Origin: a virus
Taxonomy: Duplodnaviria > Caudoviricetes
IMG/VR virus record: IMGVR_UViG_3300042282_000085
Strand: one strand, 5' to 3'
DNA length: 64,000 nt
Part shown: positions 5,963 to 33,295 of the stretch, piece by piece
Layout of the letters: each line of letters begins with the position of its first letter
How positions within the stretch are numbered: the stretch's first letter is position 1
Made by a program: the position numbers and the translations under genes
The notes under the pieces: generated by a model
The model's database searches: none
What the model saw: only the letters and a program-made list of their open reading frames with translations
What the model was told of the DNA's origin: nothing

Positions 5963-7171
5963 TTAGTAAAGTCCCTCACTATAGAGTTCATTGCCCGACC
6001 CACCATTGCGTTTAAAGTCAACGGGCTGACCAGCAGCTAGCGCCACCAGCAACGCCTCATGGCGATCCATGTACGTTTCCCATTGATCAATGAAGCCTTG
6101 TTCCCACTTACGATCATCCACGTAACCTAATTTAAGGTAGGCCTCTGCTTGAACGTGCATAGTGGGACAGAAGTGACGTGGGCCGACCAACATATAGTCA
6201 CCGTTTCTACAGGCAGCACATACGACCTTACGCAGAGGCACTTCGGAAACAGACGCCTGTAGCGGTGCTGCGTACAGAACCACCTTAGCGGTCTTACGGT
6301 CCCGAACTCCCATCAGAAGCACAGGGTAGGGTAGGTCCTCCAAGGGCGATTCTTTACCACCAACCAATACAGGGGTGCGCTCTACTGGATAGCCTTTATC
6401 CACCGTGTGACTATCCAAATTACAGTGGATGTGGTCCAATAGACCGATGGCTACTTTAAGGTTTACCACCGAGTAAATTCCCTTAACAACCTCTGTATGC
6501 GGTGTGTCATGCTGCACTGACCGCAGCTCATCCGGCAAGTCGCGATCATGCGGATCCAGCTCCATGAAACGCTGAAGCGCAGCCTTCAACTGATCCCGCT
6601 CTTGTTCTGCTTCAAAAAGGCGCTTAATTGATACAAGGTGCGTATCTGAAGCTACAACTTCACGCAATCGCTCCACCTCAGCCTGCAGCGGTGCCATGAG
6701 TGCCTCTGCAAACTCATACACATACGGGTTTAGGTCTTCGGATCCATGCGGCTGGGTTTTCAGTTTGAAGCCATTGGCCAGGACAAGTTCCTTGACCTGT
6801 TCACGCTGCACCGTCTTTTCTCCTCTCCGGAAAGGCACTACCCAGCGACTGTAGCTCTTGGAGTAGTTGTACCAATTCCCATCGCCAAAGCACAGGCCCC
6901 AGGCGTTGTAGGAATTGTTCTCGGTAGAGGACCAGGCGTATTCAATAGACTGCACAGATGCTACAGTTCGGGCGTCGTAAAGTGCATCTAAGATCATCCT
7001 ATCGGGCAATTCATACCCAAGCCCATGACAGTATGCCACACCCTCATGCCAATCACACTCTCTCCACAGTGACTGAGGGGCTACGGCCCAATACTCCGTA
7101 TCCGTGATATGGAAAACAGTATCTCCGTTATCCAGCACTGCGCCAACCTCAATTGCATTGCTACTAGTCAT
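5963..7171 (-). CDS. Chimeric protein: N-terminal CLec-fold (DUF1566/Lcl-like) domain with DGR variable repeat, fused to unrelated phage domains
   Basis: Residues 1-116 align with the C-terminal domains of 30305 and 32309 (GAVLDNG..AVAP..YC..LGYELP..WSSTE..AW.L.FG.GNWY..K..WVVPFRR); about 285 further aa follow in frame. Confidence 0.8.
   Translation of the reverse strand: MTSSNAIEVGAVLDNGDTVFHITDTEYWAVAPQSLWRECDWHEGVAYCHGLGYELPDRMILDALYDARTVASVQSIEYAWSSTENNSYNAWGLCFGDGNWYNYSKSYSRWVVPFRRGEKTVQREQVKELVLANGFKLKTQPHGSEDLNPYVYEFAEALMAPLQAEVERLREVVASDTHLVSIKRLFEAEQERDQLKAALQRFMELDPHDRDLPDELRSVQHDTPHTEVVKGIYSVVNLKVAIGLLDHIHCNLDSHTVDKGYPVERTPVLVGGKESPLEDLPYPVLLMGVRDRKTAKVVLYAAPLQASVSEVPLRKVVCAACRNGDYMLVGPRHFCPTMHVQAEAYLKLGYVDDRKWEQGFIDQWETYMDRHEALLVALAAGQPVDFKRNGGSGNELYSEGLY
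6824..6940 (-). repeat. DGR variable repeat copy VR3
   Basis: 117 nt identical to 31247-31363 and 33167-33283 except at codon positions 1-2 of NNC/NNT codons. Confidence 0.88.
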
Positions 7172-7173
7172 AG

Positions 7174-7374
7174 TTAAGTCCTTCGTTTACCCATCGGTAT
7201 AATTGACCACCAACCTACCTTCACTACCATCGTAATCATCGTCACCTCAGCGATTACCATAATGAAGGAAAAGTAAAAGGCGGCTTTGTATTTGCCGCCC
7301 ACTACATTCTGGCTTTGAAACCCACGTATAAAGACATAGGTGAAAGTGGATAAAAGTTGAATGAGATAAGACAT
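7174..7374 (-). CDS. Small membrane protein, possibly C-terminally truncated
   Basis: Two hydrophobic helices; ends abruptly (IIPMGKRRT) 2 nt before the VR3 gene. Confidence 0.55.
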   Translation of the reverse strand: MSYLIQLLSTFTYVFIRGFQSQNVVGGKYKAAFYFSFIMVIAEVTMITMVVKVGWWSIIPMGKRRT

Positions 7375-7429
7375 CACGCCCATCCTACTGTATAAGTGAC
7401 ACCGCTCTAAATTCTTGCGCAATCTTTAA

Positions 7430-7702
7430 TCAATCTATCGATTTGAGATAGATTCCTTTACCCGGCAGAAAATAAATATGCTGATAGAGCGTAATCAGCG
7501 GCTCCAGGTCCAAATCAAAGTGGACGCTGTTATAGTGTCCCTCATACCCCTCCAGCGTTAGGTTGGTGGAACTATTGCCCATTTCTATGGCGGTAACACG
7601 ACAGACGTCCCCCACCGCAACGGAGGCGGGTGGTGTACCGGCGGGCGTATCGTGTCTACTGATGCACTTGGTTTCAATGGGTCGATTCAATGTAAAGCGC
7701 AT
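7430..7702 (-). CDS. Hypothetical protein
   Basis: ORF with GAGG RBS in the early operon. Confidence 0.65.
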   Translation of the reverse strand: MRFTLNRPIETKCISRHDTPAGTPPASVAVGDVCRVTAIEMGNSSTNLTLEGYEGHYNSVHFDLDLEPLITLYQHIYFLPGKGIYLKSID

Positions 7703-7726
7703 ATCGTACCTCTACGTGTCTTTCGG

Positions 7727-8266
7727 TTAAGGGTTAACGGTGATGTCGACAGTGTAGCAGCTCTCTGTGTGACTATGATGTTCACAGAAGCTCTGGGCGG
7801 TGGGTGAGTGGGTACCGTCACTGTAAAAACAGTTTGTACCACTGCCCTTACGAACCTCATATGCCAGCTGCACGGATTGAGTAAAGAAGCCCTCCACCGG
7901 ATCGTTCGGTGTGGTCGGGGTGTTCAGCACGAGATAGCCTGATACTGGCGGTTTATAGGCAACAACCGCTGGATTGTTGACCTCCCAATAGAAGACTTCC
8001 CAATACCCAAAGAGTGAATAGCCCATGCAGCGATACAGGTGTCGGTACACTTCACTGTTCTTACCGTGCCCCAACGCATGCAGCAGAGGAACAAGGTCGT
8101 TTAATGACAGAGGTAACAGGGCGGCCTCTACCTCCGGATCAGGCATCCACCGCAGGGTGCCCTGCGGGTCTCGGATGATGGGGTGGTTGTGATGGGCCTC
8201 CGTCGCCATCATCTCCTGGTATTCTTCCGGCAGTGCCTCGCGTGGCACAATCTCGTAAGTACCCAT
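7727..8266 (-). CDS. Hypothetical protein
   Basis: Coupled to the upstream gene (TAATG). Confidence 0.7.
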   Translation of the reverse strand: MGTYEIVPREALPEEYQEMMATEAHHNHPIIRDPQGTLRWMPDPEVEAALLPLSLNDLVPLLHALGHGKNSEVYRHLYRCMGYSLFGYWEVFYWEVNNPAVVAYKPPVSGYLVLNTPTTPNDPVEGFFTQSVQLAYEVRKGSGTNCFYSDGTHSPTAQSFCEHHSHTESCYTVDITVNP

Positions 8267-8652
8267 TACTGTTCTCCCTTTTCACTACCTTTGGCAGTAT
8301 GGACGACGTAATCGACTATGTCCCCCATCGCCTTGGACCCCTTGAAGTGCCCGCCTGTATCCCTGCACATAGCAGCCCACTCCTCACACATCTGCCGCCA
8401 GTCCCCGGTACTCTGTGGCAGATAGAAGTCCTCCAGATTAGGGTTATCTTTAACAACCTCCCCATCTTTCACTACCATACGGTAGCGGGCCCAGCGGCTC
8501 ACGGACACCGTAAATCCAGGGTTTTCTTTGGACAGCTCAATAAGAGCTTCCTTACTAATGTGGTCACAAAACCAATCCTTGTTACCGCCCCGATCTACGG
8601 GATGTACTACCTCTATATGAAAACGACTGTTCAAATCTGAATACTCGGACAT
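8266..8652 (-). CDS. Hypothetical early protein
   Basis: AAGGAG RBS; first gene after the early promoter. Confidence 0.7.
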   Translation of the reverse strand: MSEYSDLNSRFHIEVVHPVDRGGNKDWFCDHISKEALIELSKENPGFTVSVSRWARYRMVVKDGEVVKDNPNLEDFYLPQSTGDWRQMCEEWAAMCRDTGGHFKGSKAMGDIVDYVVHTAKGSEKGEQ

Positions 8653-8687
8653 GTTTACTCTCCTTAGAGTTAGGTATAGTCCCTAAG

Positions 8688-8701
8688 GTAATATAGGTTT
8701 T
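8688..8701 (-). promoter_or_regulatory. phiKZ-type early promoter
   Basis: Minus strand AAAACCTATATTAC (phiKZ early consensus TATATTAC), about 35 nt upstream of a start codon. Confidence 0.8.
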
Positions 8702-8817
8702 CGTTAATCTAGAATAGTTAATCTAAAGAAAAAAAAAGAGGAGTATCCTCTTTTAGTGCTGGAGCCAGGCCTCCAGCTTCGCAATGTCACCCTGGTCTTT
8801 ATTCCGTAGGCACGCTG

Positions 8818-10644
<1,827 letters not shown>

Positions 10645-10660
10645 CTATGTCATCCTAACA

Positions 10661-10673
10661 GTAATATAGGTTT
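10661..10673 (-). promoter_or_regulatory. phiKZ-type early promoter
   Basis: AAACCTATATTAC upstream of ligA. Confidence 0.8.
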
Positions 10674-10965
10674 GTAGATACTACGACTCCATAGTCTATA
10701 CTACCCTCTATCCTACTAACAGTCATAAACCCCTATACCCCTCTAATGGGGATATAGGGTTATACCAGTATACTTATTAGTACAGTAGTAGTAGAGAGCA
10801 TGGGTAGTACTCTATACTGTGGTAAATAATGTCCCTCCCTCATCTACTTACCTGCTCCGTTCCTATCCTTCGTTTCACTCAGTCTAGTCACTCCACAGCC
10901 GTAGCTGGGAAGGGGCTCTTTTTAGTACATCATCACAGACTACTGTTAAAATAAATAAATACCTA

Positions 10966-10991
10966 TACTCCTCCCCTTAGAGGGAGGAGTA
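10966..10991 (-). terminator. Hairpin terminator
   Basis: TACTCCTCCC..GGGAGGAGTA stem followed by a T-rich run on the minus strand, after 11004. Confidence 0.65.
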
Positions 10992-11003
10992 CAGTAGAGT
11001 TTA

Positions 11004-12332
11004 CTATTTAAGGTTACTGATACCTTTACCAGTAGCACCTACCAAAGCAGAGGCTACAGCTCCACCGTGGCGATAGAGTTCACGAGAGGTTATGCTCAAG
11101 GTATTGCTCCAACGACGGATCATTATAATGCTGATGGTTGAAGGACGCATACTCGGTACCAAGGTACCAGCTAGCAGCAGTGCCAATTCTCGAGGAGGGA
11201 GTTTACGTAATCCATCTAAGGATGCCTTATGCTTGTCCATCACTGCAATGTTTGCTTTATGCTCCTGCTTCAGGTTAATCATCCCTTTAATAAGGTCTCC
11301 TGTAGCACGGTTAAGGTCCTCCAGATCCTTTTTAGAAGGCGCATTTGTCACAAAGCTATTAGACGCTTGTTTGTTTGCACGGTAGTCCGCCCTCATATCG
11401 AATAGGTAAAGACGACCATACTCAGTAGAGTCGCCCTTAGGCTTACCGATAGAGGCCACGATGCGGATGCCACCCATCAAAGCATTCTTAGAAGCCATAA
11501 ACTCCTTACTGAACAGGGCACTGGAAATAGCACCGAAGATACCCTTAGGCTCTGTGGTAACCGCTAGACCGTAATGCGACAGGATGGCTTTCTGTGCTGC
11601 CTCCATACGGTTATTGCGACTGTTAGTATTGCCTTCATCCTTAGACGCCTCCATAGCTACGTCCATCGCATCCCGTAGGGCGGACATATCGCTCCACTGC
11701 AGGATGCCCTTTGTGAAGTCAGCCACATCCTTAGCGGTGGGGATAGCCTGCTTCTTACCCGGGATATAAAGATGCTTACCATTCTTGATCTTGAGGGTAT
11801 CATTCTTAGGTACATTGCCAATGCGACTCAAATCCGCGCGCTGTGCATCGACGCGTTTCTGAATGCCATTGAGGCGTGCGAAGAAGACGTCCCCAAACTT
11901 ATTTAGGGCGTCTATATACCCTTCATAGAAAGCACCGAATTTCTTGATCACGCGCTGAACTGCGTCGCCGACACCCTCCATTGCGATATGCAAGTCAGCT
12001 GAGAGACTATCATTAGACTCGAAGGCAGGCGTAGCGATTGGCCATTCCTCGTCACAGAAAGCGAGGAGAGTAGTGGCCTGGTCATAGTACATCTGACCCA
12101 TTTCCATAGAAACCGGAGTCTCAGTATCCTTAAGACGCGCATCCATCTTAAGGTAGAGATCCGACAACCCTTCAAGGGCAAACCCCATGCGGTCCAAGGC
12201 ATCGGCGGTTTCTTCCAACGCGATGACTTCACTGGAGAGGTCATAATCCTCTTCATCCATGAAGCTATAAACCTCCACGTCATCGGTAAGGCTTTCCTGT
12301 GCAATCGCTTGTGCAAGTATATTTTTCAACAT
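11004..12332 (-). CDS. Virion head/inner-body protein with acidic propeptide
   Basis: Acidic N-terminal ~120 aa with AQE, ALE, ALE, SME, AFE and AME sites (phiKZ prohead protease S/A/G-x-E), then a basic body. Confidence 0.7.
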   Translation of the reverse strand: MLKNILAQAIAQESLTDDVEVYSFMDEEDYDLSSEVIALEETADALDRMGFALEGLSDLYLKMDARLKDTETPVSMEMGQMYYDQATTLLAFCDEEWPIATPAFESNDSLSADLHIAMEGVGDAVQRVIKKFGAFYEGYIDALNKFGDVFFARLNGIQKRVDAQRADLSRIGNVPKNDTLKIKNGKHLYIPGKKQAIPTAKDVADFTKGILQWSDMSALRDAMDVAMEASKDEGNTNSRNNRMEAAQKAILSHYGLAVTTEPKGIFGAISSALFSKEFMASKNALMGGIRIVASIGKPKGDSTEYGRLYLFDMRADYRANKQASNSFVTNAPSKKDLEDLNRATGDLIKGMINLKQEHKANIAVMDKHKASLDGLRKLPPRELALLLAGTLVPSMRPSTISIIMIRRWSNTLSITSRELYRHGGAVASALVGATGKGISNLK

Positions 12333-12397
12333 TGTTTTAAGTTCCTTTGTAGTGGGACCGTAAGTTCCTTAGCTAAGGTTTAACTTTAACGGGGGAG

Positions 12398-13342
12398 TTA
12401 ATCTGCCTTTAACGACTGCATGCACCATCTGATAGCGAAGATACAGTAGTCGGCGTGGTCGTACCAGTCCCATAGGCCACCCACAAACCCATTAAGGTCT
12501 TGGTCCAGCGCTTGGTGGTAGAACACATCATAGAACTTATCGTACGCATGTTCAAAGTTTTCTTGGAACCGCTCATTGAACTCGGAGCCATCACTGTGAT
12601 CACCACCCATAACGGTGACAAAACTCTCCATGTCCACATTTGTAATGGTATCTGCAATCCATTTACCCACCTTTACAATGTCGTCGACAGTGGCTGACGG
12701 GACCGACGCCAGTTGATCCAATTTCGGTTTTACAATGACCTTGGGCATTCGCCCATCCTTAATAAGGACATGGTTGCCCGGCATAGCTGGGGAAGGTAAC
12801 TTAGCACGCTCGATGGGCCGCTTTAGTTTTTGGTAATCTGCAATGGCTCTCTTTACCGCAGCATCTACCTTATCTTCATCTTCAGTATTGGTTACGATAT
12901 TCTCCACCCAACTAATGATCTCACTGATCGCCGCGTCTATATCTTCGGCATACCCGCGCAAGGTAGACATATACGGTACATATACTGTCTCGAAATAGTC
13001 AATGGCTGTGGCGGGTGTAACAACCTTCCCATTAATCTGGAACAAGGCCTGATTAACTGGCGCCACCGTCTCGGCCATGTTTTCCCGAAAACGCTTACGT
13101 ACCCAGCGCTCGTTACCTAAGGTATCCTTTACCATGGAAGCGAGCTTGCGATAATTGCGCTTAGTGATAACTTCCTCTAACTCTTTACCATTAGGACTGG
13201 TATCAAAGAGGTCTTTAACCTTTTCCAGAAGACCTTCCATGGAGACACTTTCTATCTCCTCCATGTACGCCTCCAGCGGCCCCTTATCTAAATCTATTTC
13301 CATACCCCTGTTTGTGTACTGTGTGAGAATGTTCTTCAACAT
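12398..13342 (-). CDS. Virion head/inner-body protein
   Basis: MLKNILTQ start and upstream leader nearly identical to those of 11004-12332; SMEG cleavage-like site. Confidence 0.65.
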   Translation of the reverse strand: MLKNILTQYTNRGMEIDLDKGPLEAYMEEIESVSMEGLLEKVKDLFDTSPNGKELEEVITKRNYRKLASMVKDTLGNERWVRKRFRENMAETVAPVNQALFQINGKVVTPATAIDYFETVYVPYMSTLRGYAEDIDAAISEIISWVENIVTNTEDEDKVDAAVKRAIADYQKLKRPIERAKLPSPAMPGNHVLIKDGRMPKVIVKPKLDQLASVPSATVDDIVKVGKWIADTITNVDMESFVTVMGGDHSDGSEFNERFQENFEHAYDKFYDVFYHQALDQDLNGFVGGLWDWYDHADYCIFAIRWCMQSLKAD

Positions 13343-13387
13343 TGTTTTAGGTTCCTTTGTAATTAGAAAGGTTTGCTCTTGCAGATA

Positions 13388-13942
13388 TTACCATTCATAC
13401 CATGATTCCATGGAAGGTAGGTCTTTTATAACGTTTACCGGCCACGGTAGCCACCCGTAGGGCTCCTTACCAGAACGGTCGTCAAAGGCGTAATAGTACA
13501 GCTTGTCGCTAGACTTTGGCACTTCAATTTCTACACGGCCCAGATATTCCATATATGTTGGATCTATGATCCCATGTTCTTCAGTAATATGCGCGTCATG
13601 AATGGCTCTTTGTTCGGTGAATGCCTTCGGCAGTATAATGCGTTCCCGTCCAGTAAACCTTGGCTTATACACGGCAAACGTCATCTTAGATCGCCCTCTT
13701 CCACCAAATAGATGTTTAACATTGGCGTAGATAGCTTGAAAGCATTGCTCGATGGTCGGCGACACAGATATTTTAGCGATTACTGTTTCAGTAACCAAAT
13801 CAACGTTTTCCTCCGTGTAGTCGCCATCTGGCTCTACAGGCGTCCACCTTCCTTCAGGATCATGGTTAGTGCGACTGTGGTAGAGGTCAGGTAGGTTTCT
13901 ATTTACACGTATCGCCAGGCGTATTAAATCCTCACCGTTCAT
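13388..13942 (-). CDS. Putative head-packaged protein with C-terminal PSMESWYEW
   Basis: C-terminal S-x-E..W-x-x-W motif shared with its neighbours. Confidence 0.6.
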   Translation of the reverse strand: MNGEDLIRLAIRVNRNLPDLYHSRTNHDPEGRWTPVEPDGDYTEENVDLVTETVIAKISVSPTIEQCFQAIYANVKHLFGGRGRSKMTFAVYKPRFTGRERIILPKAFTEQRAIHDAHITEEHGIIDPTYMEYLGRVEIEVPKSSDKLYYYAFDDRSGKEPYGWLPWPVNVIKDLPSMESWYEW

Positions 13943-14013
13943 ACCAAGATTCCGTAGATGGCAATGGTCCGTTCCCCACAGTCACCCTGCGTACTGTACT
14001 TACCTTCGTACAT
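13932..14013 (-). pseudogene. Remnant of a deleted paralog (RBS and ATG plus an out-of-frame C-terminus)
   Basis: AAGGAG-ATG gives only 24 aa; another frame reads ..RRVTVGNGPLPSTESWYER*, matching RKVVVGNKPLPSMEAWYKW of 15059-15709. Confidence 0.6.
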
Positions 14014-14164
14014 AGTAGTCTCCTTAGATCTTACGGCATTGATAGTTGTAAACAATCTTGAGTATCATGAGACAATGGTTGGGTATGTCATCCAAGTATT
14101 ATAGGTCTTCCCGTTTCATGAATGTAGCATAAACCCCTATCCACGTTAGGCGTGGGTAGGGAAA

Positions 14165-14707
14165 TCACCATTGTAGCCAGCCACACACGGACTCAGTGGA
14201 TATAGCTCTACTGTCCCTTCGCCACATCCAAAAGGTAACACGATCGCCATCGACTGTAACCTCATCAATGACAGTATAGCCCATCCGGCGATTTATTTCT
14301 GCCATTGCTGGATCAGAGGAGCGGGTGCTGGTGGAAGTAAGAATGAGCGTATAGTTAGCGTGTAGCTCCTCCTTTAGTGCTAAAGCCATCCCTTTACCTC
14401 GATAGCCTGGCCGCACCATGAGACTGCTTATCCATGTTTGGTGTTTGCCCAAATATCGGTATTTTTCTTGCCAGGGATTGACATCGGTAAGATACGGCTT
14501 GAAATTAATCGCAGCGACCAGGACATTTCTCTGGTAGATGCCATAGACTCGTCGGACATCGGCCTGTACCTCACGGCGCAGCTTGTCGACGTCCTGATTA
14601 AACTGACCGCTGCCTTTTCCCCAGACCAAGTAATCCAATCGCATATAGTCTTCGATTTCACTCTTGCTGGATAGCGTCACAATTTTATATTTAATGCGAA
14701 CGGACAT
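14165..14707 (-). CDS. GNAT-family acetyltransferase
   Basis: ISSLMVRPGYRGKGMA acetyl-CoA motif A; INRRMGY; ends STESVCGWLQW. Confidence 0.8.
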   Translation of the reverse strand: MSVRIKYKIVTLSSKSEIEDYMRLDYLVWGKGSGQFNQDVDKLRREVQADVRRVYGIYQRNVLVAAINFKPYLTDVNPWQEKYRYLGKHQTWISSLMVRPGYRGKGMALALKEELHANYTLILTSTSTRSSDPAMAEINRRMGYTVIDEVTVDGDRVTFWMWRRDSRAISTESVCGWLQW

Positions 14708-14728
14708 CTCTGGTATCCCCTTTGATTG

Positions 14729-15058
14729 CTATGTTACTGGCGAGTGTATTTTAGCTACGTACCGTATTGGGTTAGATTGGCTCGAATGGTCGAAACCACC
14801 GACCGGACGGTGGCCGGAACGATCTAGTGCGTGAGGTCGAAGTCCAAGACGCTGACAATCTCTGCGATGGCGTAACCTACCTACAAAGCCCTCTAAGGCG
14901 GGTACGTCAGTGACTGATACATTATAGGGGGTAAGTACTGAATTGACGATAGACATGTACATTAGGTCAGGTACATCCCCTCTTTTTGCCTCTAGCGCCC
15001 TTAAGGTCTGCGTAATGTGTTGTAGGTGGTACTCAGTTGTATCCATTATTTTCTCCAA
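14729..15058 (-). CDS. Hypothetical protein, possibly a truncated head protein
   Basis: PALEGFVG propeptide-like site followed by a short atypical tail. Confidence 0.4.
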   Translation of the reverse strand: MEKIMDTTEYHLQHITQTLRALEAKRGDVPDLMYMSIVNSVLTPYNVSVTDVPALEGFVGRLRHRRDCQRLGLRPHALDRSGHRPVGGFDHSSQSNPIRYVAKIHSPVT

Positions 15059-17766: not shown

Positions 17767-17874
17767 AGTGCCTGCCCAAGTCAGTTAAAGTTCGTTATAC
17801 CATCTTGGACAATTGGATTCTATAGGTATGTACCGGTCGGATGCTAGCCCCGACACAACCTTAAGGAAGTTACC

Positions 17875-19155: not shown

Positions 19156-19158
19156 GCC

Positions 19159-19767: not shown

Positions 19768-19770
19768 GTA

Positions 19771-19796: not shown

Positions 19797-19800
19797 ACCT

Positions 19801-23897: not shown

Positions 23898-24065
23898 ATA
23901 GCTTACTTACCCGCTCCTCTATGGGGCGGGTAAGGGCTATACCTATTTATTAAAAATCACAGATAATATAGCGGGTCACAGTTACTTTACATTCCGTTAT
24001 TTGGGCCCCTCGTAGAGTGACTCCGCTTAGTAACATCTTCCAATTTCATATCTGAGGATATTCTC

Positions 24066-25562
24066 ATGGCATTTCGTAAACATCACGGTATTACGCTGGC
24101 GAACAACAGCTGGATCGAAAACATGCATGTTGAGCGCCTGGCAGCCGATCCGAGCCCGCTGGTCGCAGGTCGTCTCTGGTACAATGAGACCGACAAACTT
24201 CTGCGCTTCTCTACCCTGGATGCCGGCGGCGCCGTCATCATCCGCGCTATCGCCTCTGCTGAGCAGCTGCAGAGCGAAATTACTAACCTGAATACCACCC
24301 TGACCACCTACGTAGACGACGAAATCGCCCTGGTCCAGGGTCAGGTAGATGCGCTGGGTAATGCGTTCAACTACGTTGGCGTACTGCCGGCACAGACCGG
24401 TGTAACCGGCACTGGTACCGATATCGACCCGTTCGTACTGGACGGTATGTCACCTGGATTCAAAGATGCCGGTGATTACTACAAGGTCACTCAGTCTGGT
24501 TACTATCAGTTTGGCGCTACTGCAGCCATCTACGTTGATGTAAACGATGGCCTGGTATTCAACACCGCCGGTTCCCTGGACCGCATCAACAACCAGCAGT
24601 CTGATGTTGCTGGTACTACTGATGAAGTAGTGGTGACTGGTTCTGTTGAAACAGGTTTCGTTGTCTCTATCGCTCAGGCGATTAAGGACTCTATCGCCGC
24701 TAATGCCCAGGCAGTAGTGGACGAGGCGTCCCGCGCCCAGTCTGTAGAAGGTGACCTGGTTAACCTGACCACCACCGACAAAACCAACCTGGTTGCTGCT
24801 GTAAACGAAGTAGACGCTAACGCTGATGCTAACGCTACCGCTATCGCTCAGGAAGTAGCTGACCGTACGGCCGCTGACGTAGTCCTGCAGGGTAACATCG
24901 ACGCTGAAGCTACTGCCCGTGGTGACGCTGATGCCCTGATTCAGGGTGAGTTGGATGCCACTCAGGCTGGTGCCGGTCTGGGTACCGATGGCGCCTACGT
25001 TGCTAATGCAGCAGCTAACTACATCGCTACCGCTACTAGCCTGAAGGGCGCTGATGACGCACTGGACGCTGCACTGAAGGCCGAAGCCGATCGTGCCGCT
25101 GCCGCTGAAGCTGTTAACGCTCAGGCTATCGCTGATGAAGTGACCCGTGCCACTGGTGCTGAGGGTACCCTGCAGGGTAATATCGATGCCGAAGCTCAGG
25201 CTCGTGCAGCTGCTGATGGCGACCTGACTACTTTGGCTACCACTGATAAAACCAACCTGGTTGCAGCAATCAACGAAGTACTGGGTCTGGCCGGCGACGG
25301 TACTGACGCCCTGAAGACCGCTATCAACGGTAAGAAGGCCATCTACACTGCCGCTACTGCTCAGCTCTCACATACCTTCAACCACGGTTTCGCTGGTTCT
25401 GACCTGGTCGTTACTGTACTGGTGTACGATAACTCTAACAGCAAGTGGTACAACGATTCTGTACTGGTTGAAGTGGATCCGGCCACCACTACCGTCACTG
25501 TACCGTTGCAGGTTGCGGCCATCGTCAAGATCATCGTTGAAGATCTGTCTGACATCGCCTAA
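24066..25562 (+). CDS. Long coiled-coil fibre protein, probably abundant
   Basis: Ala-rich heptads, duplicated TTDKTNLVAA[VI]NE and LQGNIDAEA; strong codon bias; C-terminal HTFNHGF domain. Confidence 0.75.
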   Translation: MAFRKHHGITLANNSWIENMHVERLAADPSPLVAGRLWYNETDKLLRFSTLDAGGAVIIRAIASAEQLQSEITNLNTTLTTYVDDEIALVQGQVDALGNAFNYVGVLPAQTGVTGTGTDIDPFVLDGMSPGFKDAGDYYKVTQSGYYQFGATAAIYVDVNDGLVFNTAGSLDRINNQQSDVAGTTDEVVVTGSVETGFVVSIAQAIKDSIAANAQAVVDEASRAQSVEGDLVNLTTTDKTNLVAAVNEVDANADANATAIAQEVADRTAADVVLQGNIDAEATARGDADALIQGELDATQAGAGLGTDGAYVANAAANYIATATSLKGADDALDAALKAEADRAAAAEAVNAQAIADEVTRATGAEGTLQGNIDAEAQARAAADGDLTTLATTDKTNLVAAINEVLGLAGDGTDALKTAINGKKAIYTAATAQLSHTFNHGFAGSDLVVTVLVYDNSNSKWYNDSVLVEVDPATTTVTVPLQVAAIVKIIVEDLSDIA

Positions 25563-25646
25563 GGCCTAGACGCCTGATACAGAGGACGGGCCCTTAGGGG
25601 TCCGTCCTTTGCTATTTAGTCTGTCAGACGAATACGGAGAACCCAC

Positions 25647-25862
25647 ATGGTACCCTACCCCTACAAGGACCCTGCGTATTTTACAACTGTAGACGCCGTT
25701 TTGGAGGAGATTGATCGAATTCTAGCCCACCTAGAGTCCCAGACGGTTAATATCGACGACTATACTCGGGAGACAGACCAACTCGTGTGGTATGGTAACC
25801 AGGTACAGTGGTTAAAGTTGTACTACGAACGTGCCGAGAGGTTGATGTTAAATGAATCATAA
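25647..25862 (+). CDS. Hypothetical protein
   Basis: GGAG RBS, after a hairpin at about 25582-25608. Confidence 0.6.
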   Translation: MVPYPYKDPAYFTTVDAVLEEIDRILAHLESQTVNIDDYTRETDQLVWYGNQVQWLKLYYERAERLMLNES

Positions 25863-26061
25863 TTTGTCGGGTCATTTTAAACAATGGTTCCAAGTTTCAC
25901 GTACACAACTCGATGAAATTCGCGCCTCTCGTGAAACTGCACCTGTAGAGGTACAACTAACACAGCTGCGACAGCAGTACAGTCGCATGGCACATATACT
26001 CCGAGTCTGTCAAGGAAAGGCGTATTTTGTTGGCGTGCCCCGTATTACATTGAACAATTGA
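25852..26061 (+). CDS. Hypothetical protein
   Basis: Overlaps the upstream stop; GAGG RBS. Confidence 0.55.
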   Translation: MNHNLSGHFKQWFQVSRTQLDEIRASRETAPVEVQLTQLRQQYSRMAHILRVCQGKAYFVGVPRITLNN

Positions 26062-26071
26062 GGACACACGT

Positions 26072-26992
26072 ATGACACGTTCATTGCAGTTTTTGAGCTC
26101 CACCCAGTACACTGAGGTTGCAGCTCTGCCGGATAATCCGACGGTTGGTCAAACCGCCTTCATGAATGGCATTCTCTACATCTATGCCAGTCTGAATGGC
26201 GTTACGACCTGGTTCCCGCTGAACCAACCCCAGTCGTTCTACATCCATAGCCAGGGTCTGGCCAAACTGACCTGGGAAATTCACCATAACCTGGGTAGCC
26301 GCGATGCGATCATTGCGGTCTATGACATGGATAACCGCATGATGGATGCGGACATTCAGCATATCCAGAATACCGAAACCGGCGAGTGGTATATTGTTGC
26401 AACCTTTACAGAAGCTGTTATGGGATACGCGGTGGTCTTTGGCCGTGAGAATATCTCTGCACCTTCTGTCGATGCTCAGGTCATTAACGCGACCGATGGT
26501 ATTTACGTCGGCGGTGTCTCCGTGGCACTGGAAACCGATGTTGGTTTGTTGCTGCTGGAGCTGGACAAGAAGGTCGCCACGCTCGATATTGAAGATACTG
26601 TTACCTCTACTGACGCTACCGTACCGTTGTCTGCCAACCAAGGTCGCGTGTTGAAAGGGCTGATCGACAATATCAATGCCCTGTTGGCGTCTGACGACAC
26701 CACGTTGGATGAACTCCAGGAAGTGGTCAACTTCATCAAACAGAACAAGGCCACCTTGGATAGTCTGGGCATCTCCAGCATTGCAGGTCTTCAGGATGCG
26801 TTGGATACACTGACCAACAACTTGGCAACCGAAGTGAGTCGTGCGACCGGTGCGGAAGCTACCCTGCAAACTAACATTGATGTCAAGTTGGATAAAACCG
26901 GCGTAGCAGCCGATTCCAGTAAGTTAGGGAATCTGCCTGCCTCGGATTACATCACTGTCCACGATACCATCGATATGGGTGAGATTGCATAA
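26072..26992 (+). CDS. Tail-fibre-related protein
   Basis: WEIHHNLGS domain; PLSANQGRVLKGLID and DDTTLDELQEVVNFIK fibre motifs; ends IDMGEIA. Confidence 0.7.
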   Translation: MTRSLQFLSSTQYTEVAALPDNPTVGQTAFMNGILYIYASLNGVTTWFPLNQPQSFYIHSQGLAKLTWEIHHNLGSRDAIIAVYDMDNRMMDADIQHIQNTETGEWYIVATFTEAVMGYAVVFGRENISAPSVDAQVINATDGIYVGGVSVALETDVGLLLLELDKKVATLDIEDTVTSTDATVPLSANQGRVLKGLIDNINALLASDDTTLDELQEVVNFIKQNKATLDSLGISSIAGLQDALDTLTNNLATEVSRATGAEATLQTNIDVKLDKTGVAADSSKLGNLPASDYITVHDTIDMGEIA

Positions 26993-27038
26993 CACCTAGT
27001 GCCGGGGATACTGTCCCCGGCTTTTAAGGAGCCTATAC

Positions 27039-27695
27039 ATGCATTGTGAGTTATTACGTGGTACTGAGAAGATACGAGGGCCTCTACCCTATAAGCCCGC
27101 AATGCTGGCTAAGGTGTTTGCCCGATTGGGACTAAAGTTCCCGCCTTTACCGCAAACCTTAACGGCTCCGGTCTCTGATCTCAGTGCCACCCATACCCTT
27201 TACCCTGTTACAATTAACAAACCACCCGCCTCTCGGCAGGAGGACAGTGTCCTAGCCAGCCGTACTGTGGATGCGAATGGTGTTACCTATACGTACAATA
27301 CAGTACCCCGTAACTATGATGCACTTAGATTACAGCTAAAGGAACGCATTTCGGGACGCCATGCCCTCTATGAGCTCAATTACGTAACCTTTGATTCGGT
27401 TGCAATTAAAGCCGACCTAGAAGCCCGTATTAATGCTGCTGAAATCGTGGAGAGTTTTCAAAAAGGTAAAATCAACAGCATTAAGTGGCGCGGTAAGAAT
27501 GGCAAGATAACGGTTGAAAGCATCGAAACCATGCAGGCTATCTATGACACTATCTTCCGGTACCTGCATATAGGGTTTGCGGCTAAAGAGATCGCAGAAG
27601 ACACGGTTGATACCTCTAGTGATGCAGAGTTGGTATCTTTAGATCCGATTGCTATATTCGATACCGCCGTAACGACCTTAGAGTCTGTAATGTAG
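27039..27695 (+). CDS. Tail-fibre assembly chaperone-like protein (DUF4376-like)
   Basis: Paralog of 31562 (MxCE..R, DLEAR.NA, W.G, MQA.YD..F.HL..GF.AKE). Confidence 0.6.
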   Translation: MHCELLRGTEKIRGPLPYKPAMLAKVFARLGLKFPPLPQTLTAPVSDLSATHTLYPVTINKPPASRQEDSVLASRTVDANGVTYTYNTVPRNYDALRLQLKERISGRHALYELNYVTFDSVAIKADLEARINAAEIVESFQKGKINSIKWRGKNGKITVESIETMQAIYDTIFRYLHIGFAAKEIAEDTVDTSSDAELVSLDPIAIFDTAVTTLESVM

Positions 27696-27707
27696 GAGGA
27701 TGGATGA

Positions 27708-28436
27708 ATGAGACGTTCCCATGGTTTTAGCTTCCTACCGGGTGCGCGGGCGAGGAATTTCAGAGTAGATCGGTATCCGGTCTCACCCGAAGACCTTCTA
27801 GAAGAAGGACGCGTGTGGTATGGAGAAGATGACGACACCCTGCGGTACAGTAAAACAGAAAGTGGCCTATTGGTTCCACGCCGAGTGTTAGATTCTGAAC
27901 CCAAGTGGGCGGACTTAACCGCACCGATTAATCCCGACAGTGGGGTAGGGGTTAGTACCCCAAGCTGGGAAGCATTTAGGGGTGACTTTTCGGCAATGCT
28001 GTTTTTGTCAAATAAGAGTCAATCGGTTCAGGTGGCCTTCCACATTAACCACGACTATGCACTGGGTACCGAGATCTTCCCTCATGTCCATTGGACCAAT
28101 AAGGTACCTGGTGAAACAGGTACAGTGCGGTGGGGGGTTGACCTGCTAGTGGCGCAGGGTCACCAACAAGATAACTTCAATGGTGTGATTGACACGATCT
28201 ACATCGAGCAAGCTGGGGTAGGGGGTACCTTGGACCATATGGTGGCCGAGTCTACGGTAGGATTCTATGACCCGCGACTGGAACCCGATACATTGGTGTA
28301 TTGTCGAATATTCAGAGACTCCGGTCACCCGAACGATACCGCCGGTAACGTGTACGGGCTTACGATAGATGTACACTATCAGCTCGATGACGTGGGTACT
28401 CCATCTAAGTCGCCTGACTTTTACGCGCGTAATTAA
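27708..28436 (+). CDS. Virion protein sharing its N-terminal domain with 24066
   Basis: RRSHGF..NFRVDR..GRVWY..DTLRYS versus RKHHGI..NMHVER..GRLWY..KLLRFS. Confidence 0.6.
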   Translation: MRRSHGFSFLPGARARNFRVDRYPVSPEDLLEEGRVWYGEDDDTLRYSKTESGLLVPRRVLDSEPKWADLTAPINPDSGVGVSTPSWEAFRGDFSAMLFLSNKSQSVQVAFHINHDYALGTEIFPHVHWTNKVPGETGTVRWGVDLLVAQGHQQDNFNGVIDTIYIEQAGVGGTLDHMVAESTVGFYDPRLEPDTLVYCRIFRDSGHPNDTAGNVYGLTIDVHYQLDDVGTPSKSPDFYARN

Positions 28437-28499
28437 TCCTTTCAATGACTAGGCCCTACGGGTGACTGGTTGCTATAAAGGGACATATGAGGCCTTATT

Positions 28500-29330
28500 A
28501 TGTTTCAATTCGAGAACATCCAATTCAAGCGTGGTGATAAAGCCACGAACGATGCGTACGTAGGGAAACCCGGTACCATCTCCATCGACCGTGAGTCCAT
28601 GAACGTCCGTGTGCACGATGGTGTGACACCGGGCGGTTTATTCAGTGTAACCCGGGGCGCTGCCTTTGATGAGTTGGCGGCAGAGTTTATTGTTGCCAGC
28701 GATAGCTTTACAGCGACCATGGGTCAAACCGTTTTTACCTTGACCAATGTAAGTCTGGAGAACCCAGACCGTGTGAAGGTTAAGATCAACGGCATGCAGA
28801 CCAACAACTGGGTGGTCAGTGGCGTTAACCGCATTACGGTGAACGACAGTATTCTGATCAACGACACCATTTTGATTTACCAGTACCGTACGCTGGATGA
28901 TGTGGTCAGTGCAGCGGTTGAAGGTATGGACGTTGAGGCACTGCTAATTAGCATGCTGGAGTCTGTAACCAACATCGGTGGCATTAACATTGATGACATC
29001 CTAACCGTTAACAGCACAGGTGCCTTTGAGCAGATGGTGGTGGATGCGATTGGTTCTGCTTTGGGTGAGTCGGGTAGCTTGGCTAACTTGGTAACCACAG
29101 ACACCTTGCAGTCTGCGATTAATGGCATAGACATTACGGCTGCTGTTCGTCGCGTACTGGACGGTATTCCTGATGTCGATTATCCGATTACCCATGTACT
29201 GACTACTGCGGATAACATTGACCTAGGTCACATGGAGTTTGTCTTTGACGGTAACGAGTCTCTGGACCCCAGTGTCCCGAACGATACGCTGACTGTCTTT
29301 GACCGCATTGACTTTGGTATCGTGAACTAA
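28500..29330 (+). CDS. Mtd N-terminal-domain protein without CLec domain (possible adaptor)
   Basis: IQFKRG..AYVGKPGTISID..VRVHDGVTPGG resembles the Bordetella phage Mtd N-terminus (QFRGG..FTG..EITVD..VHDG.T.GG). Confidence 0.7.
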   Translation: MFQFENIQFKRGDKATNDAYVGKPGTISIDRESMNVRVHDGVTPGGLFSVTRGAAFDELAAEFIVASDSFTATMGQTVFTLTNVSLENPDRVKVKINGMQTNNWVVSGVNRITVNDSILINDTILIYQYRTLDDVVSAAVEGMDVEALLISMLESVTNIGGINIDDILTVNSTGAFEQMVVDAIGSALGESGSLANLVTTDTLQSAINGIDITAAVRRVLDGIPDVDYPITHVLTTADNIDLGHMEFVFDGNESLDPSVPNDTLTVFDRIDFGIVN

Positions 29331-29348
29331 GGTTAGAGGTGACAATCG

Positions 29349-29801
29349 ATGGGATTTCTATATGAAGGTGAGGATATAGGGCGGTATATCGAAATCCGGG
29401 ATGGCCGTGAAACGTTCGTGGTCACACGGGAGACCATTCGAGACGTTAAGGTAGTGCCTACCGATATCGTACTACCCGACCACTGGAAAGGTAAGGCCTT
29501 TTACCGATTACGGATGGACTTTGATATTTTCGGTACGCTAATACCGAAGCACTACACCTCAGACGGTGCCAGTGTACCCAGGCTGTTCTGGTCCCTCTAT
29601 CCGCCGGTAGGGCGCTACCTGTTAGCGGCCTTTTTGCATGATTGGAAATTGGACCAGCGTCATGGATGGGACGAATCAAACCGTGCCTTTGATGAAGCTA
29701 TGCGTCACATCGGTATCGCGCGTCGCCGTCATTGGGTAATCATGCGCTCGGTTCAATTAAACGGGTGGGTACAATCCACCTTTTTTGGGGACCCTAAATA
29801 G
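29349..29801 (+). CDS. DUF1353-family protein
   Basis: IPKHYTSDGASVPR..W, AAFLHDW. Confidence 0.8.
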   Translation: MGFLYEGEDIGRYIEIRDGRETFVVTRETIRDVKVVPTDIVLPDHWKGKAFYRLRMDFDIFGTLIPKHYTSDGASVPRLFWSLYPPVGRYLLAAFLHDWKLDQRHGWDESNRAFDEAMRHIGIARRRHWVIMRSVQLNGWVQSTFFGDPK

Positions 29802-29810
29802 GAGAGCTCA

Positions 29811-30176
29811 ATGAAACGACATATCGCAGGCTTCTTATTCGTCGCGGCTGTATCGTTGGTGTTACCCGCGTGCACTACATCCCAACCGGCTGTATTGGAA
29901 GACGGGTACCAGCTCGGGGATGCCTCTAAAGTAGTCGCCGGGGAAGCTTTTAATTTAATGATGCTGCGGTACCGATATTGTTATACGTATGCCCCTGAGT
30001 CCAGGGACGCTATCCTGGAGATTATTCAGGCCTTCTATCCGGAGTATCCCACTGAAGGGATTTGTACGGATATGGGTGATCTGGTAAAGCAATTGAAGGG
30101 TGTGGATGCTACTACACTCGAAAAGGCATACGACCTACCGAAGGATATCGACCACGAGTCAAGTGGGTTAGAGTAA
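29811..30176 (+). CDS. Lipoprotein (paralog of 58712-59074)
   Basis: Lipobox LPA-C; DGY..GD, YC, P.YP..GICT shared. Confidence 0.7.
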   Translation: MKRHIAGFLFVAAVSLVLPACTTSQPAVLEDGYQLGDASKVVAGEAFNLMMLRYRYCYTYAPESRDAILEIIQAFYPEYPTEGICTDMGDLVKQLKGVDATTLEKAYDLPKDIDHESSGLE

Positions 30177-30304
30177 AGGACACTAATTCACGTTTTACAG
30201 GGTGGCTCTACTGTAACCCTCTGACAGAAAATTGCAGTGGAGGAACTACCCTGCCGTTTTAAAATAGCCCCTTGATTAACCGTTAGTAACTGTAGGAAGG
30301 ACTT

Positions 30305-31375
30305 ATGGCCTTAAAACAAATGAGCGGTGTGGTTACGTGGAAGCGCTTTACCACGAACAGCATCGAAACGTACTTGGGTAAGCCGGGTGAACCGATTGTC
30401 GACATGCGCACTGGTGAGCCGGCAATTCGTTTATGTGATGGATTGACACCGATGGGTCACCCAATTGGGGTTATTCCAACGTTGACTGGTGTGGCACGCC
30501 CTATCATTATTAGCCCGGTTAATAATGCTACAGATGTCGATACCTCACCGGTGATTACTGCCAGTCAATTTAACGGCATTAACGGCGACGGCAGTATCCC
30601 AACACATGCGGCGACTATCTGGAACATTGCAACGGATGCCGCCTTTACCCAGATGACGTATAATAGTGGTGAAACGGCACTGAATAAAACGACACTGGAT
30701 CTTTCCAGTGTAGGAGTAACACTGGAGCAAGGTAGTGTTTACTATATACGCGTAGCGTATAAGAGTGACAGTGGTGTGGTGTCCGACTGGAGTGCTACCG
30801 TTAAGATTACGACCAGTACTATGGGAATTGGCACAGTACTACCGGACGGTGGTATCGTTTTCGGTCAGGAAGGGGGCGACTGGCTGGTAGTAGCCCCGGC
30901 TTCACAGCGTACGACTAAAATGTGGGGACTCTACGGTACCGATACCAGTCTTCCAAACTGGACGAGTGGCAGTGGGACTACTACTACCCCTACTGACCCT
31001 AACTCATCAGAGTACAATACTGACGTACTGACGAGTCCTACTTATAACTCCATTAACGATGGACAGGGTAGTATCGGCTCACCCGCTGCAGAGTACTGCC
31101 GTAGTCTAGGGTACGACTTACCCAATGCGAGGGATCTGCAGCTTATTTACAATAATCGAGCTCAGATCGATGCAGCGGACTCTAGTGGAGGCGGTGCCAC
31201 ACTCTCCGCTATTCAATCTGGCACTGCACCCGGCTCCTCCACGACGTACGTCTGGTCCTCTACCGAGTACGGTTCCAACTTCGCCTGGTACCTGCTCTTT
31301 GGCAATGGGAATTGGTACAACATCAACAAGAACGTCAGTATCTGGGTAGTGCCTTTCCGGAGAATACCCGTTTAA
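30305..31375 (+). CDS. Mtd-like receptor-binding protein, DGR target 1 (Mtd_N + Ig/Fn3-like + CLec with VR)
   Basis: N-terminus KRFT..YLGKPGE..RLCDGLTPMG; RP.I.SP..YYIRVAY..SDWS; C-terminus YVWSSTE..WVVPFRRIPV. Confidence 0.85.
   Translation: MALKQMSGVVTWKRFTTNSIETYLGKPGEPIVDMRTGEPAIRLCDGLTPMGHPIGVIPTLTGVARPIIISPVNNATDVDTSPVITASQFNGINGDGSIPTHAATIWNIATDAAFTQMTYNSGETALNKTTLDLSSVGVTLEQGSVYYIRVAYKSDSGVVSDWSATVKITTSTMGIGTVLPDGGIVFGQEGGDWLVVAPASQRTTKMWGLYGTDTSLPNWTSGSGTTTTPTDPNSSEYNTDVLTSPTYNSINDGQGSIGSPAAEYCRSLGYDLPNARDLQLIYNNRAQIDAADSSGGGATLSAIQSGTAPGSSTTYVWSSTEYGSNFAWYLLFGNGNWYNINKNVSIWVVPFRRIPV
31247..31363 (+). repeat. DGR variable repeat copy VR1
   Basis: Three-way alignment with VR2 and VR3; invariant 3' end TGGGTAGTGCCTTTCCGGAGA. 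Confidence 0.9.
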
Positions 31376-31435
31376 ACGGGTATTCACTTTTAATACCGAG
31401 TCACAGTGAGTGTCCTTTAAAGGACACTGCTTTTA

Positions 31436-31524
31436 GGGCTTGCCCTTTGTAGGGCTGCCCTTACTACCCTTACTCCATTTAAAAGCCCTACAGGCCACCC
31501 AGGCCCTTTGTAGGGACTGGGTCC
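31436..31524 (+). repeat. 89-nt non-coding element, copy 1
   Basis: Near-identical to 33328-33416; contains two GCCCTTTGTAGGG hairpin units. Confidence 0.85.
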
Positions 31525-31561
31525 AAATTTACAATACTTCTTTCATAAAAGGATTATTCCA

Positions 31562-32242
31562 ATGAAATGTGAAATCATTCGTAATGGCAACACCATCGTT
31601 TCTGAGATGGACTTTAACGTAAACCGTGTACGTGACATTGTTGCCCGTCAGGGTGGCGATTACCGCCTCGTACCCAATGCTCTAACTGCTGCCATCCATA
31701 TTGGCTCTATTCAGATCCTCCCAGTTAAATACGATATGCCAGTTACTACTCAGGCCCAGCGCTGCGGTAAGCCGGTACGTACCGTATCAGACTCACTGGT
31801 TACCTACTCTTACCCGGTTGAAGAGAAAACCGAAGACGAGCTTCGCAATGAGCTTCTTACCCAGGTGTCCCGTATTCATGAAAGTTATGACAGCGGTCGT
31901 ATGGAGTATCAGGGCGTCTCAATTGCGGTAGACCTGGAGGCCCGTGTCAATGCAGAAGGCGTACTCAAGCGTTTTGAGCGTGGTCTGATGTCGGCTACTC
32001 AGTGGAATGGTCAGGCGGTAACCTCAACCGATGAGAACGGTAATGAGGTCACTGGTCCTTCTAAGGTGGCCATTGGCTCTACCGCTGATATGCAGGCGCT
32101 GTATGATGCAGTCTTTGCACACCTCGAAGCCGGTTTCATAGCTAAAGAAATGCTCAAAGCGGAGCTCGAATCTGCTGATGCCGTTACATTGGCGACTGTA
32201 GACGTTAATGCGCGTTGGAATGAGATTGTAGAGACACTCTAA
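31562..32242 (+). CDS. Tail-fibre assembly chaperone-like protein (DUF4376-like)
   Basis: Paralog of 27039; lies between the two Mtd-like genes. Confidence 0.6.
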   Translation: MKCEIIRNGNTIVSEMDFNVNRVRDIVARQGGDYRLVPNALTAAIHIGSIQILPVKYDMPVTTQAQRCGKPVRTVSDSLVTYSYPVEEKTEDELRNELLTQVSRIHESYDSGRMEYQGVSIAVDLEARVNAEGVLKRFERGLMSATQWNGQAVTSTDENGNEVTGPSKVAIGSTADMQALYDAVFAHLEAGFIAKEMLKAELESADAVTLATVDVNARWNEIVETL

Positions 32243-32308
32243 GGTGTAACTAGTGATTAGGGGGTGGGTGCCCACCCCCTTTGTATACGGTTTATAGGAG
32301 CATGTAAG

Positions 32309-33295
32309 ATGCCAGATTTACAATTGAAACGCGGTACACCGGCTCAGGTAGATGCCTATCAGGGGCCAGCGGGTGAAATCGTAGTCGATAGCCAGAACTG
32401 GAATATGCGGCTACAGGACGGTGTTACAGCTGGTGGTGTATTACTAGGCAGTAACGAGAACCTGATTGCACGCCCTGAGATTTTGAGTCCCATTCAGGGT
32501 AGTGTCATTGGGGACCAGAGCCCTATTCTGGTTAGTACCGCGTATAGTGGGGAAGGGGTCCACAGTGCGAGTCAGTGGCAGATCAGTGGAGAGGTTGGGT
32601 TTGTAAACCTTATCCACGATAGCGGACGCAATACAGTTAGTCTATTGAGCTATAACTTACTGGATGCAGGTGTAACCTTGACCCGTGGGGTAACGCTGTA
32701 CGTACGGGTGCGTCACGAATCCGGTACTGCAGGCTGGAGTGAATGGAGTGAAGCACTAAGCTTCAGTGTACAGGCAATGGAGCCGGGTACTGTACTGGAT
32801 GACGGTGGCATTATATTTGCACAGGATGGTAATGATTGGCTCGTTGTAGCGCCTGCTAGTCTGCGTGCACTGAGAACCTGGAACGATGGGTCTACTAGTT
32901 GGGTAGACACCCCACTCCCTAACTATACTTCTAATCCAGAGCAAGACGTTAACGATGGTACTTACAATACGGATGTACTGGTTAACGTGACGCAGGAGCA
33001 GAAGGCCGCTACCTACTGCCGTTCTATCGGCTATGATTTGCCGAATGCGGCAGAGCTTCGTTTAATTTACAATAATCGAGCTCAGATCGATGCAGCAGAT
33101 ACCAGCGGAGGCGGGGCCACACTCTCCGCTATCCAATCCGGCACTGCACCCGGCTCCACCACGGCGTACGTCTGGTCCTCTACCGAGTACAATTCCTTCG
33201 TCGCCTGGGCCCTGTACTTTGGCAATGGGAATTGGTACGCCAGCATCAAGCACAACAGTGTCTGGGTAGTGCCTTTCCGGAGAATCCCAGTCTAA
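32309..33295 (+). CDS. Mtd-like receptor-binding protein, DGR target 2
   Basis: Start after AGGAG; LQLKRGT..AYQGPAGEIVVD..RLQDGVTAGG (Mtd_N-like); same architecture as 30305. Confidence 0.87.
   Translation: MPDLQLKRGTPAQVDAYQGPAGEIVVDSQNWNMRLQDGVTAGGVLLGSNENLIARPEILSPIQGSVIGDQSPILVSTAYSGEGVHSASQWQISGEVGFVNLIHDSGRNTVSLLSYNLLDAGVTLTRGVTLYVRVRHESGTAGWSEWSEALSFSVQAMEPGTVLDDGGIIFAQDGNDWLVVAPASLRALRTWNDGSTSWVDTPLPNYTSNPEQDVNDGTYNTDVLVNVTQEQKAATYCRSIGYDLPNAAELRLIYNNRAQIDAADTSGGGATLSAIQSGTAPGSTTAYVWSSTEYNSFVAWALYFGNGNWYASIKHNSVWVVPFRRIPV
33167..33283 (+). repeat. DGR variable repeat copy VR2
   Basis: See the VR1/VR3 alignment. Confidence 0.9.

Follow-up and report, generated by a model that had tools for sequence, protein, structure and literature searches.

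The stretch analyzed here (the window) comprises 64,000 nucleotides (nt) of the IMG/VR virus record IMGVR_UViG_3300042282_000085 (Caudoviricetes), and it carries three copies, A, B, and C, of a 117-nt repeat. We conclude with high confidence that these are the variable repeats (VRs) of one working diversity-generating retroelement (DGR) that rewrites the tips of two tail-fiber proteins in a phage of a chimallin-encoding lineage. The DGR acts in trans: the window genes lie 24 to 26 kb apart on both strands and, in a relative of the phage (G002), 70 to 94 kb from the template repeat (TR). An initial annotation, made from the sequence alone, had proposed that one TR diversifies at least three genes spread over ~26 kb. 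Action in trans and on both strands is upheld, but copy A, unlike VR-B and VR-C, shows no current variation.

Alignment, BLAST, and a repeat finder all placed the copies at 6824–6940 (minus strand), 31247–31363 (plus strand), and 33167–33283 (plus strand), exactly as first described, and no fourth copy was found within the 64-kb window. An in-frame recount reproduced the reported pattern, in which 25 columns in 14 codons vary, all at codon positions 1 and 2 and none at a third position, with A in at least one copy at 21 of the 25. The chance that 25 columns would all miss third positions is 4e-5. The 3′ end of the repeat is constant among the three copies, also as reported. The ACG-ACG codons directly 5′ of the 117-nt unit vary too, and the VR is thus slightly longer at its 5′ end than had been proposed, at ~125 nt. 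The tail paralogs had been said to differ mainly at silent positions just upstream of the repeats. This holds roughly, since the differing codons in the 153 nt preceding VR-B and VR-C comprise 14 synonymous and 7 nonsynonymous ones. Set against the real TR described below, 24 of these variable columns coincide with TR adenines (hypergeometric P = 2e-13); the remaining one, at the 5′ edge of copy A, is a T/C.

No TR, reverse transcriptase (RT), or Avd gene is present within the 64-kb window, in agreement with the first inspection. A pattern taken from the repeat's invariant 5′ part matched a single IMG/VR contig, G002 (IMGVR_UViG_3300042255_000023), which is linear, 195,544 bp long, and 71% complete by CheckV estimate. 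It holds eleven repeat matches, one of which (176,544–176,680) reads A in all variable columns and is the TR. The TR of G002 and of a second contig, L031, equals the template predicted from the window letter for letter, with A at the site that had been left ambiguous, and it is identical between the two despite only 88% identity of the surrounding DNA. A metagenome scan yielded three further contigs: L023, which is 93% identical to G002, and L021 and L022, both with more distant VR genes. The L023 TR is the same template with a single 3′-end change (1 nt), beyond the predicted stretch.

The G002 cassette consists, in order, of a 431-amino acid (aa) target gene (Ig and Lcl_C domains, with the VR at its end), a 157-aa Avd-like gene, the TR, and the RT. 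The RT frame (RVT_1, 377 aa) begins 8 nt past the TR, such that a BPP-1-like spacer RNA, if any, would overlap RT coding sequence; the frame starts at GTG (L020 8676–8690). RVT_1 scores in the relatives are 65 to 68 bits. The best solved-structure match of the G002 RT is the 328-aa DGR enzyme of a Bordetella phage (E 7.5e-31), whose aligned residues are the same as those of BPP-1 Brt. Against Brt itself the G002 enzyme shows 29% identity across 350 residues (E 5e-38), and its IGxxxSQ motif, IGNLLSQ, lines up with IGSLTSQ of Brt. On L031, which belongs to the window's lineage, a P0049 gene and then an Avd-like gene are accompanied by the identical TR and an intact 377-aa RT frame, and all 13 TR/VR mismatches of this cassette are at A. 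The Avd-like gene (146–157 aa, between the target gene and the TR) matches bAvd weakly (E 4e-4 to 8e-4; 20–21 bits against a cutoff of 40). Thus, of the two partner genes that had been proposed as search targets, the RT was recovered in relatives, while Avd is represented by a match below the cutoff.

Evidence for activity comes from comparing phages that are identical outside the VRs across part of the tail region. Window positions 28965–37054 align to G002 without gaps, and all 42 differences in these 8,090 nt fall in the VRs (18 in VR-B, 24 in VR-C, 0 elsewhere; log10 P = −63), leaving zero substitutions across ~7.8 kb of flanks. Forty of the 42 are at TR adenines (16/18 in VR-B and 24/24 in VR-C). 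Public assemblies contain 7 alleles of protein B, four of which differ only within the VR, and 6 full-length alleles of protein C; most B and C alleles have the same sequence except in the last 45 residues, where 11 to 14 positions differ. The cassette target has 3 alleles, and the gene between B and C is unchanged on 17 contigs. Across 16 alleles compared, 16/16 AAY codons vary, and each residue seen is attainable by adenine changes alone. In L023, the T-to-C change in the TR 3′ end is also present in its VR, and a related VR-C allele, P0038, has the matching F-to-L change, which shows that information flows from TR to VR. Three allele pairs (P0019/P0023, P0020/P0021, and P0040/P0041) differ only near the 3′ end, a pattern that, by analogy with BPP-1, would fit 3′-anchored conversion by complementary DNA (cDNA) of variable length. 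We conclude that the DGR has been active recently and that VR-B and VR-C are being rewritten now. As separate observations, VR-C allele P0036 is one residue longer inside the VR, and contigs of run X18 have small insertions or deletions at 33235–33243 in VR-C; conversion here is not always length-neutral.

The cassette can be tied to the window's phage by position and by co-occurrence. The window aligns in reverse onto G002 at roughly 52–115 kb, with 91.6 to 100% identity across the collinear parts and 32% of its sampled 31-letter words in common, which places the cassette ~59–63 kb beyond the window start. The exact window proteins B, C, and A (A as a 344-aa call) and P0049, a 445-aa cassette-type target, share the same longest contig of 155,597 bp. 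Three wastewater runs from 2025 (X1, X2, and X4) contain contigs equal to the window with zero differences outside the VRs, and each also has a contig whose variable sites are A and which continues into the TR's own 3′ flank. The depth of this TR contig is close to that of the window flanks (8.95 versus 8.1–9.1 in X1, 9.11 versus 9.2–11.1 in X2, and 37.1 versus 38–41 in X4).

Proteins B and C are paralogous tail-fiber proteins (48% identity to each other) that combine an Mtd_N anchor with an FN3-like stalk and a C-type-lectin (CLec) head of the Lcl_C/DUF1566 type (Table 1). The N terminus of protein C is 38% identical to BPP-1 Mtd (E 7e-7). Its model has a predicted local distance difference test score (pLDDT) of 89.9, and its best PDB matches in Foldseek are five Mtd variants, followed by FN3 modules and the Lcl C-terminal domain. 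The suggestion that the VRs sit in CLec-fold targets is accordingly confirmed by Foldseek matches of proteins A and C to 8q4e, C-type lectins, and Mtd. We list gene C from its GTG; gene callers start it at ATG 32309, which gives 328 aa. The neighbors of B and C are tail-fiber-like genes and an endolysin.

Table 1. Target genes, variable repeats, and downstream elements in the window.
Feature	Coordinates	Strand	Basis
Target gene A, 402 aa: N-terminal compact Lcl_C-type CLec (aa 1–120), helical linker, C-terminal part	5963..7171	−	Model, PHROGs
VR-A, internal, aa 78–116	6824..6940	−	16 mismatches to TR: 15 at adenines, 1 at 5′ edge
Target gene B, 356 aa, tail-fiber or receptor-binding protein with C-terminal CLec domain	30305..31375	+	Pfam Lcl_C below cutoff; phrog_4245
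VR-B, ~125 nt	31239..31363	+	117-nt part: 14/14 mismatches at TR adenines
Hairpin, 10-bp stem, 4-nt loop, begins at end of TR/VR homology	31362..31385	+	DNA fold z = −2.5
Double stem-loop element, two CCCTTTGTAGGG copies	31433..31524	+	90% identical to copy after VR-C
Target gene C, 343 aa from GTG: Mtd_N, FN3-like middle, CLec tip	32264..33295	+	Pfam Mtd_N and Lcl_C, both below cutoff
VR-C, ~125 nt	33159..33283	+	117-nt part: 17/17 mismatches at TR adenines
Hairpin, 16-bp interrupted stem, directly 3′ of VR-C	33283..33320	+	DNA fold z = −4.85
Double stem-loop element, second copy	33325..33416	+	Likeness to copy after VR-B; CCCTTTGTAGGG motif

The two active repeats of the window share structured DNA on their 3′ side. 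The hairpin that follows VR-B is also found after the cassette VR of G002 (z = −3.2), and by analogy with BPP-1 it may serve as a target-recognition signal. A 92-nt element with two CCCTTTGTAGGG stem-loops lies after VR-B, VR-C, and the cassette VR; in the 64-kb window and the other loci examined, exact CCCTTTGTAGGG copies are confined to the 3′ side of VR-B, VR-C, and the cassette VRs of G002, L023, L031, and L032. This element could be a target signal, a terminator, or mere inheritance by duplication. In the mechanism that we propose, the TR would be transcribed, the RT would make cDNA from it while misreading adenines, and the cDNA would replace the VR starting at the 3′ end, with the target marked by the hairpin. 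The rewritten VR-B and VR-C tips would presumably shift receptor specificity.

Copy A differs from these two in several respects. Its VR is internal, and the protein continues for ~285 residues beyond it. The N-terminal domain is modeled with a pLDDT of 80 to 89, and among PDB structures it best matches the C-terminal domain of Legionella Lcl (template-modeling (TM) score 0.71), then C-type lectins; the C-terminal part matches phrog_839 and phrog_5217, both of unknown function. Protein A has no Pfam hit, no DUF6273, and no Ig domains, and its homologs carry a precomputed PF26092 annotation. The orthologous gene in G002 encodes 315 aa and is 84% identical. Because copy A nevertheless agrees with the TR at all non-A sites except the one at the 5′ edge (P = 4e-4 for a count of non-A differences this low absent homogenization), we take it to have been overwritten by the TR in the past.

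That agreement, together with the intact 3′ end and a G002 ortholog whose VR differs from copy A at adenine sites, would also be expected if copy A were a fully active third target whose single allele reflects the sampling of one bloom or strong selection. We consider this unlikely. Copy A is represented by a single allele on 12 contigs, compared to 7 alleles for B and 6 for C in the same collection, and a 6.5-kb contig in X4 with the copy A flanks passes straight through the repeat. Moreover, VR-A is followed by neither a hairpin (DNA fold z = 0.15) nor a double stem-loop. From the single allele and the missing hairpin, we conclude that VR-A is probably a quiescent or very low-rate target in a non-fiber protein.

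The surroundings of gene A are themselves variable. G002 has, at 104.6–109.5 kb (L018 6659–11515), an array of six small genes (134–315 aa) beside the gene for an NAD ligase. All six encode a compact domain resembling Lcl_C and include a VR-like segment, and several of the array copies have decayed 3′ ends. The counterpart in the window (5811–8366) has only one such gene. This region is a gain-and-loss hotspot in phages whose tail regions match exactly over 8 kb save for two VRs.

Several observations weigh against a working DGR as we have described it. We infer the TR and RT of the window's phage from relatives, shared contigs, and co-occurrence in samples. The Avd-like protein, in addition to scoring below the Pfam cutoff, gave no match to bAvd by BLAST. 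Two of the 42 differences are not at adenines, namely TTTGGC versus TTCAGC at 31300–31301. The same TTCAGC in place of the TR's TTTGGC is present in five VRs from several genes and lineages (window 31300–31301; G002 84474, 106777 and 79; L021; L022), and no TR with TTCAGC turned up in viral contigs; the variant may date from an earlier TR allele and have survived because conversions are partial and 3′-biased. Within-sample hypervariability could not be cleanly separated from paralog cross-mapping in the assembled contigs. The runs consist of contigs, among which the TR and the paralogous VRs map onto one another at 80% likeness; depth at the variable columns is therefore no measure of within-sample variation, and the depth of the exact VR-B allele in X1 (4.4 versus 8–9 for the flanks) and the absence of an assembled VR-B in X4 are hints only. 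Finally, B and C presumably bind receptors, as judged solely by likeness and gene neighborhood.

The lack of a TR or RT in the window, the one allele of copy A on 12 contigs, and the non-adenine 3′-end mismatches in several small G002 VR genes are what one would cite for a fossil or orphaned DGR in which the pattern is purely historical. We regard this as very improbable: flanks without a substitution adjoin two VRs with 42, several alleles reside on otherwise identical genes, and the L031 cassette of the window's lineage retains an intact RT and an unchanged TR. Less credible still is ordinary diversifying selection or gene conversion among paralogous fiber tips without reverse transcription. 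Conversion could occur, since B, C, and the cassette target are paralogs whose 3′ ends are nearly identical and whose downstream elements are shared, and the TTTGGC/TTCAGC variant is common to several copies. Against this, the variation is limited to TR-adenine positions, and neither synonymous nor third-position changes are seen. Conversion among VRs could not create new residues at adenine sites alone, and it would not preserve a separate all-adenine copy unchanged across lineages only 88% identical around it.

The phage that carries the three repeats is phiKZ-like, and its lineage encodes chimallin, which we read in the relative L033. Within the window, a match to the internal head protein family phiKZ_IP lies at 11004–12332, and the capsid protein matches phrog_3231, with the best relatives among phiKZ-like Vibrio, Erwinia, and Pseudomonas phages (up to 39% identity); in G002, a subunit of a phiKZ-type RNA polymerase matches phrog_3015 (gp74-like, E 3e-157). 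These matches, together with the chimallin gene, uphold the original assignment to phiKZ-like phages. Two stretches of the window gave no match to named phages by megablast. L033 is identical (100%) to the final 13,354 nt of G002 and then extends past it into a 651-aa gene that passes the Pfam chimallin model PF25677 (65.7 bits against a cutoff of 27). Consistent with this location just past the end of the G002 contig, the phiKZ gp54 protein and phrog_4795 had no match in G002. A 353-aa gene in G002 and L033 matches Tubulin (PhuZ-like) below the cutoff (30.4 bits versus 33). Neither chimallin nor PhuZ is found within the 64-kb window, and the phiKZ gp54–gp75 proteins gave no match to it by tblastn. 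The absence of chimallin from the window had been noted at the outset and a check for both proteins proposed; chimallin was thus located in a relative, while for PhuZ the check returned the subthreshold tubulin match.

An open reading frame (ORF) at 47540–49294 (minus strand, 584 aa) was considered as a divergent chimallin and dropped after the real chimallin turned up on L033. It had no match in Pfam, PHROGs, PDB sequences, or the Atlas feature search; an identical sequence is present in Atlas. The lineage is widespread in wastewater: 17 wastewater metagenome runs (2025) from different studies contain 0.83 to 0.95 of the words of window positions 29000–35000. Two 2016 runs from a gas well and rock contain 0.59 and look like a more distant relative; they are equal in size and are possibly one data set filed twice.

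Other features of the window are listed here in their own right. The motif GTAATATAGGTTT is repeated on the plus strand at 8656–8702, 10647–10673, 39654–39700, 52546–52572, and 58643–58669, just upstream of minus-strand genes, and probably represents a promoter consensus of the phage. Positions 39033–39080 and 39340–39387 form a perfect direct repeat of 48 nt, with the two copies 307 nt apart. A further repeat at 37778–37825 and 47484–47531 is 90% identical, contains the GC-rich palindrome CCCAGCCCGAAGGCTGGG, and looks like a terminator.

A nucleus-forming phage keeps translation apart from its DNA, and an active DGR in such a phage raises the question of whether the RT and its partners are imported through the shell. 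We tentatively suggest, as a possibility somewhat short of even, that this DGR operates inside the chimallin-enclosed nucleus, that the hairpin together with the CCCTTTGTAGGG double stem-loop licenses targets, and that the small lectin proteins without this licensing element (copy A plus six more in G002) are retired or differently regulated and have a non-fiber role. In that case, the finished cDNA, or else the RT together with the Avd-like protein and the TR RNA, would have to pass through the shell to targets 70 to 94 kb from the template. The active B, C, and cassette targets and the static copy A amount to a natural experiment on DGR target competence. With one template of 16 AAY codons, a presumably strictly lytic jumbo phage can vary three fiber tips, each independently of the others, which bears on the host-range breadth and the use of such phages.

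In the literature that we searched, no paper links DGRs to phiKZ-like phages, to Chimalliviridae, or to the phage nucleus, and a survey of 224 jumbo phages reported zero RT-diversified lectin (FGS) domains (PMC7824862). The initial annotation was aware of no DGR characterized in this lytic group. For phiKZ-like, nucleus-forming phages this stands, as no such report was found, but DGRs have already been described in phages that are not classically temperate, such as crAss-like phages; because of this, it is the chimallin setting, and not a lytic lifestyle alone, that is novel.

The closest comparison is the DGR of Bordetella phage BPP-1 (mtd-avd-TR-brt). The cassette order is the same, the RT shares the SQ motif and 29% identity with Brt, the targets have an Mtd_N-like start and a lectin-fold VR at the end, the mismatches are at adenines, and a hairpin follows right after the VR. 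The differences lie in number, distance, and carrier: at least 3 targets are present in the window and ten VR-like copies in G002, at distances from the TR of up to ~94 kb; the head is a lectin of the Lcl_C/DUF1566 type rather than an Mtd-type one; the gap between TR and RT is 8 nt, compared to ~144 nt in BPP-1; and the carrier is a chimallin-encoding jumbo phage of ~200 kb or more, compared to a 42-kb temperate podophage. In addition, TR and VR are here identical to the end of homology, and thus there is no difference between IMH and IMH* inside the repeat.

Multi-target DGRs are known from bacteria, including Treponema denticola and Stenotrophomonas, with up to eight targets, and multicellular bacteria such as Thiohalocapsa (PMC10743442, PMC10907252). 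They likewise use a single TR for many remote paralogous targets in trans, whereas the element described here is on a phage. N-terminal VR architectures like that of copy A are also known, among them the tentaclins and Hoc-like N-terminal VR targets of gut phages (PMC10743442). Tentaclins, however, combine an N-terminal DUF6273 lectin with Ig-like domains, while copy A has neither, is modeled with helices after its lectin, and shows no current variation. The Legionella Lcl C-terminal domain/DUF1566 (PDB 8q4e) is the best structural match of copy A and also matches protein C, but the Pfam scores (21–30 bits) are below the gathering cutoff of 34.9, and the context is different. The mechanism is textbook DGR retrohoming without departure, and, as far as we have searched, its setting is new.

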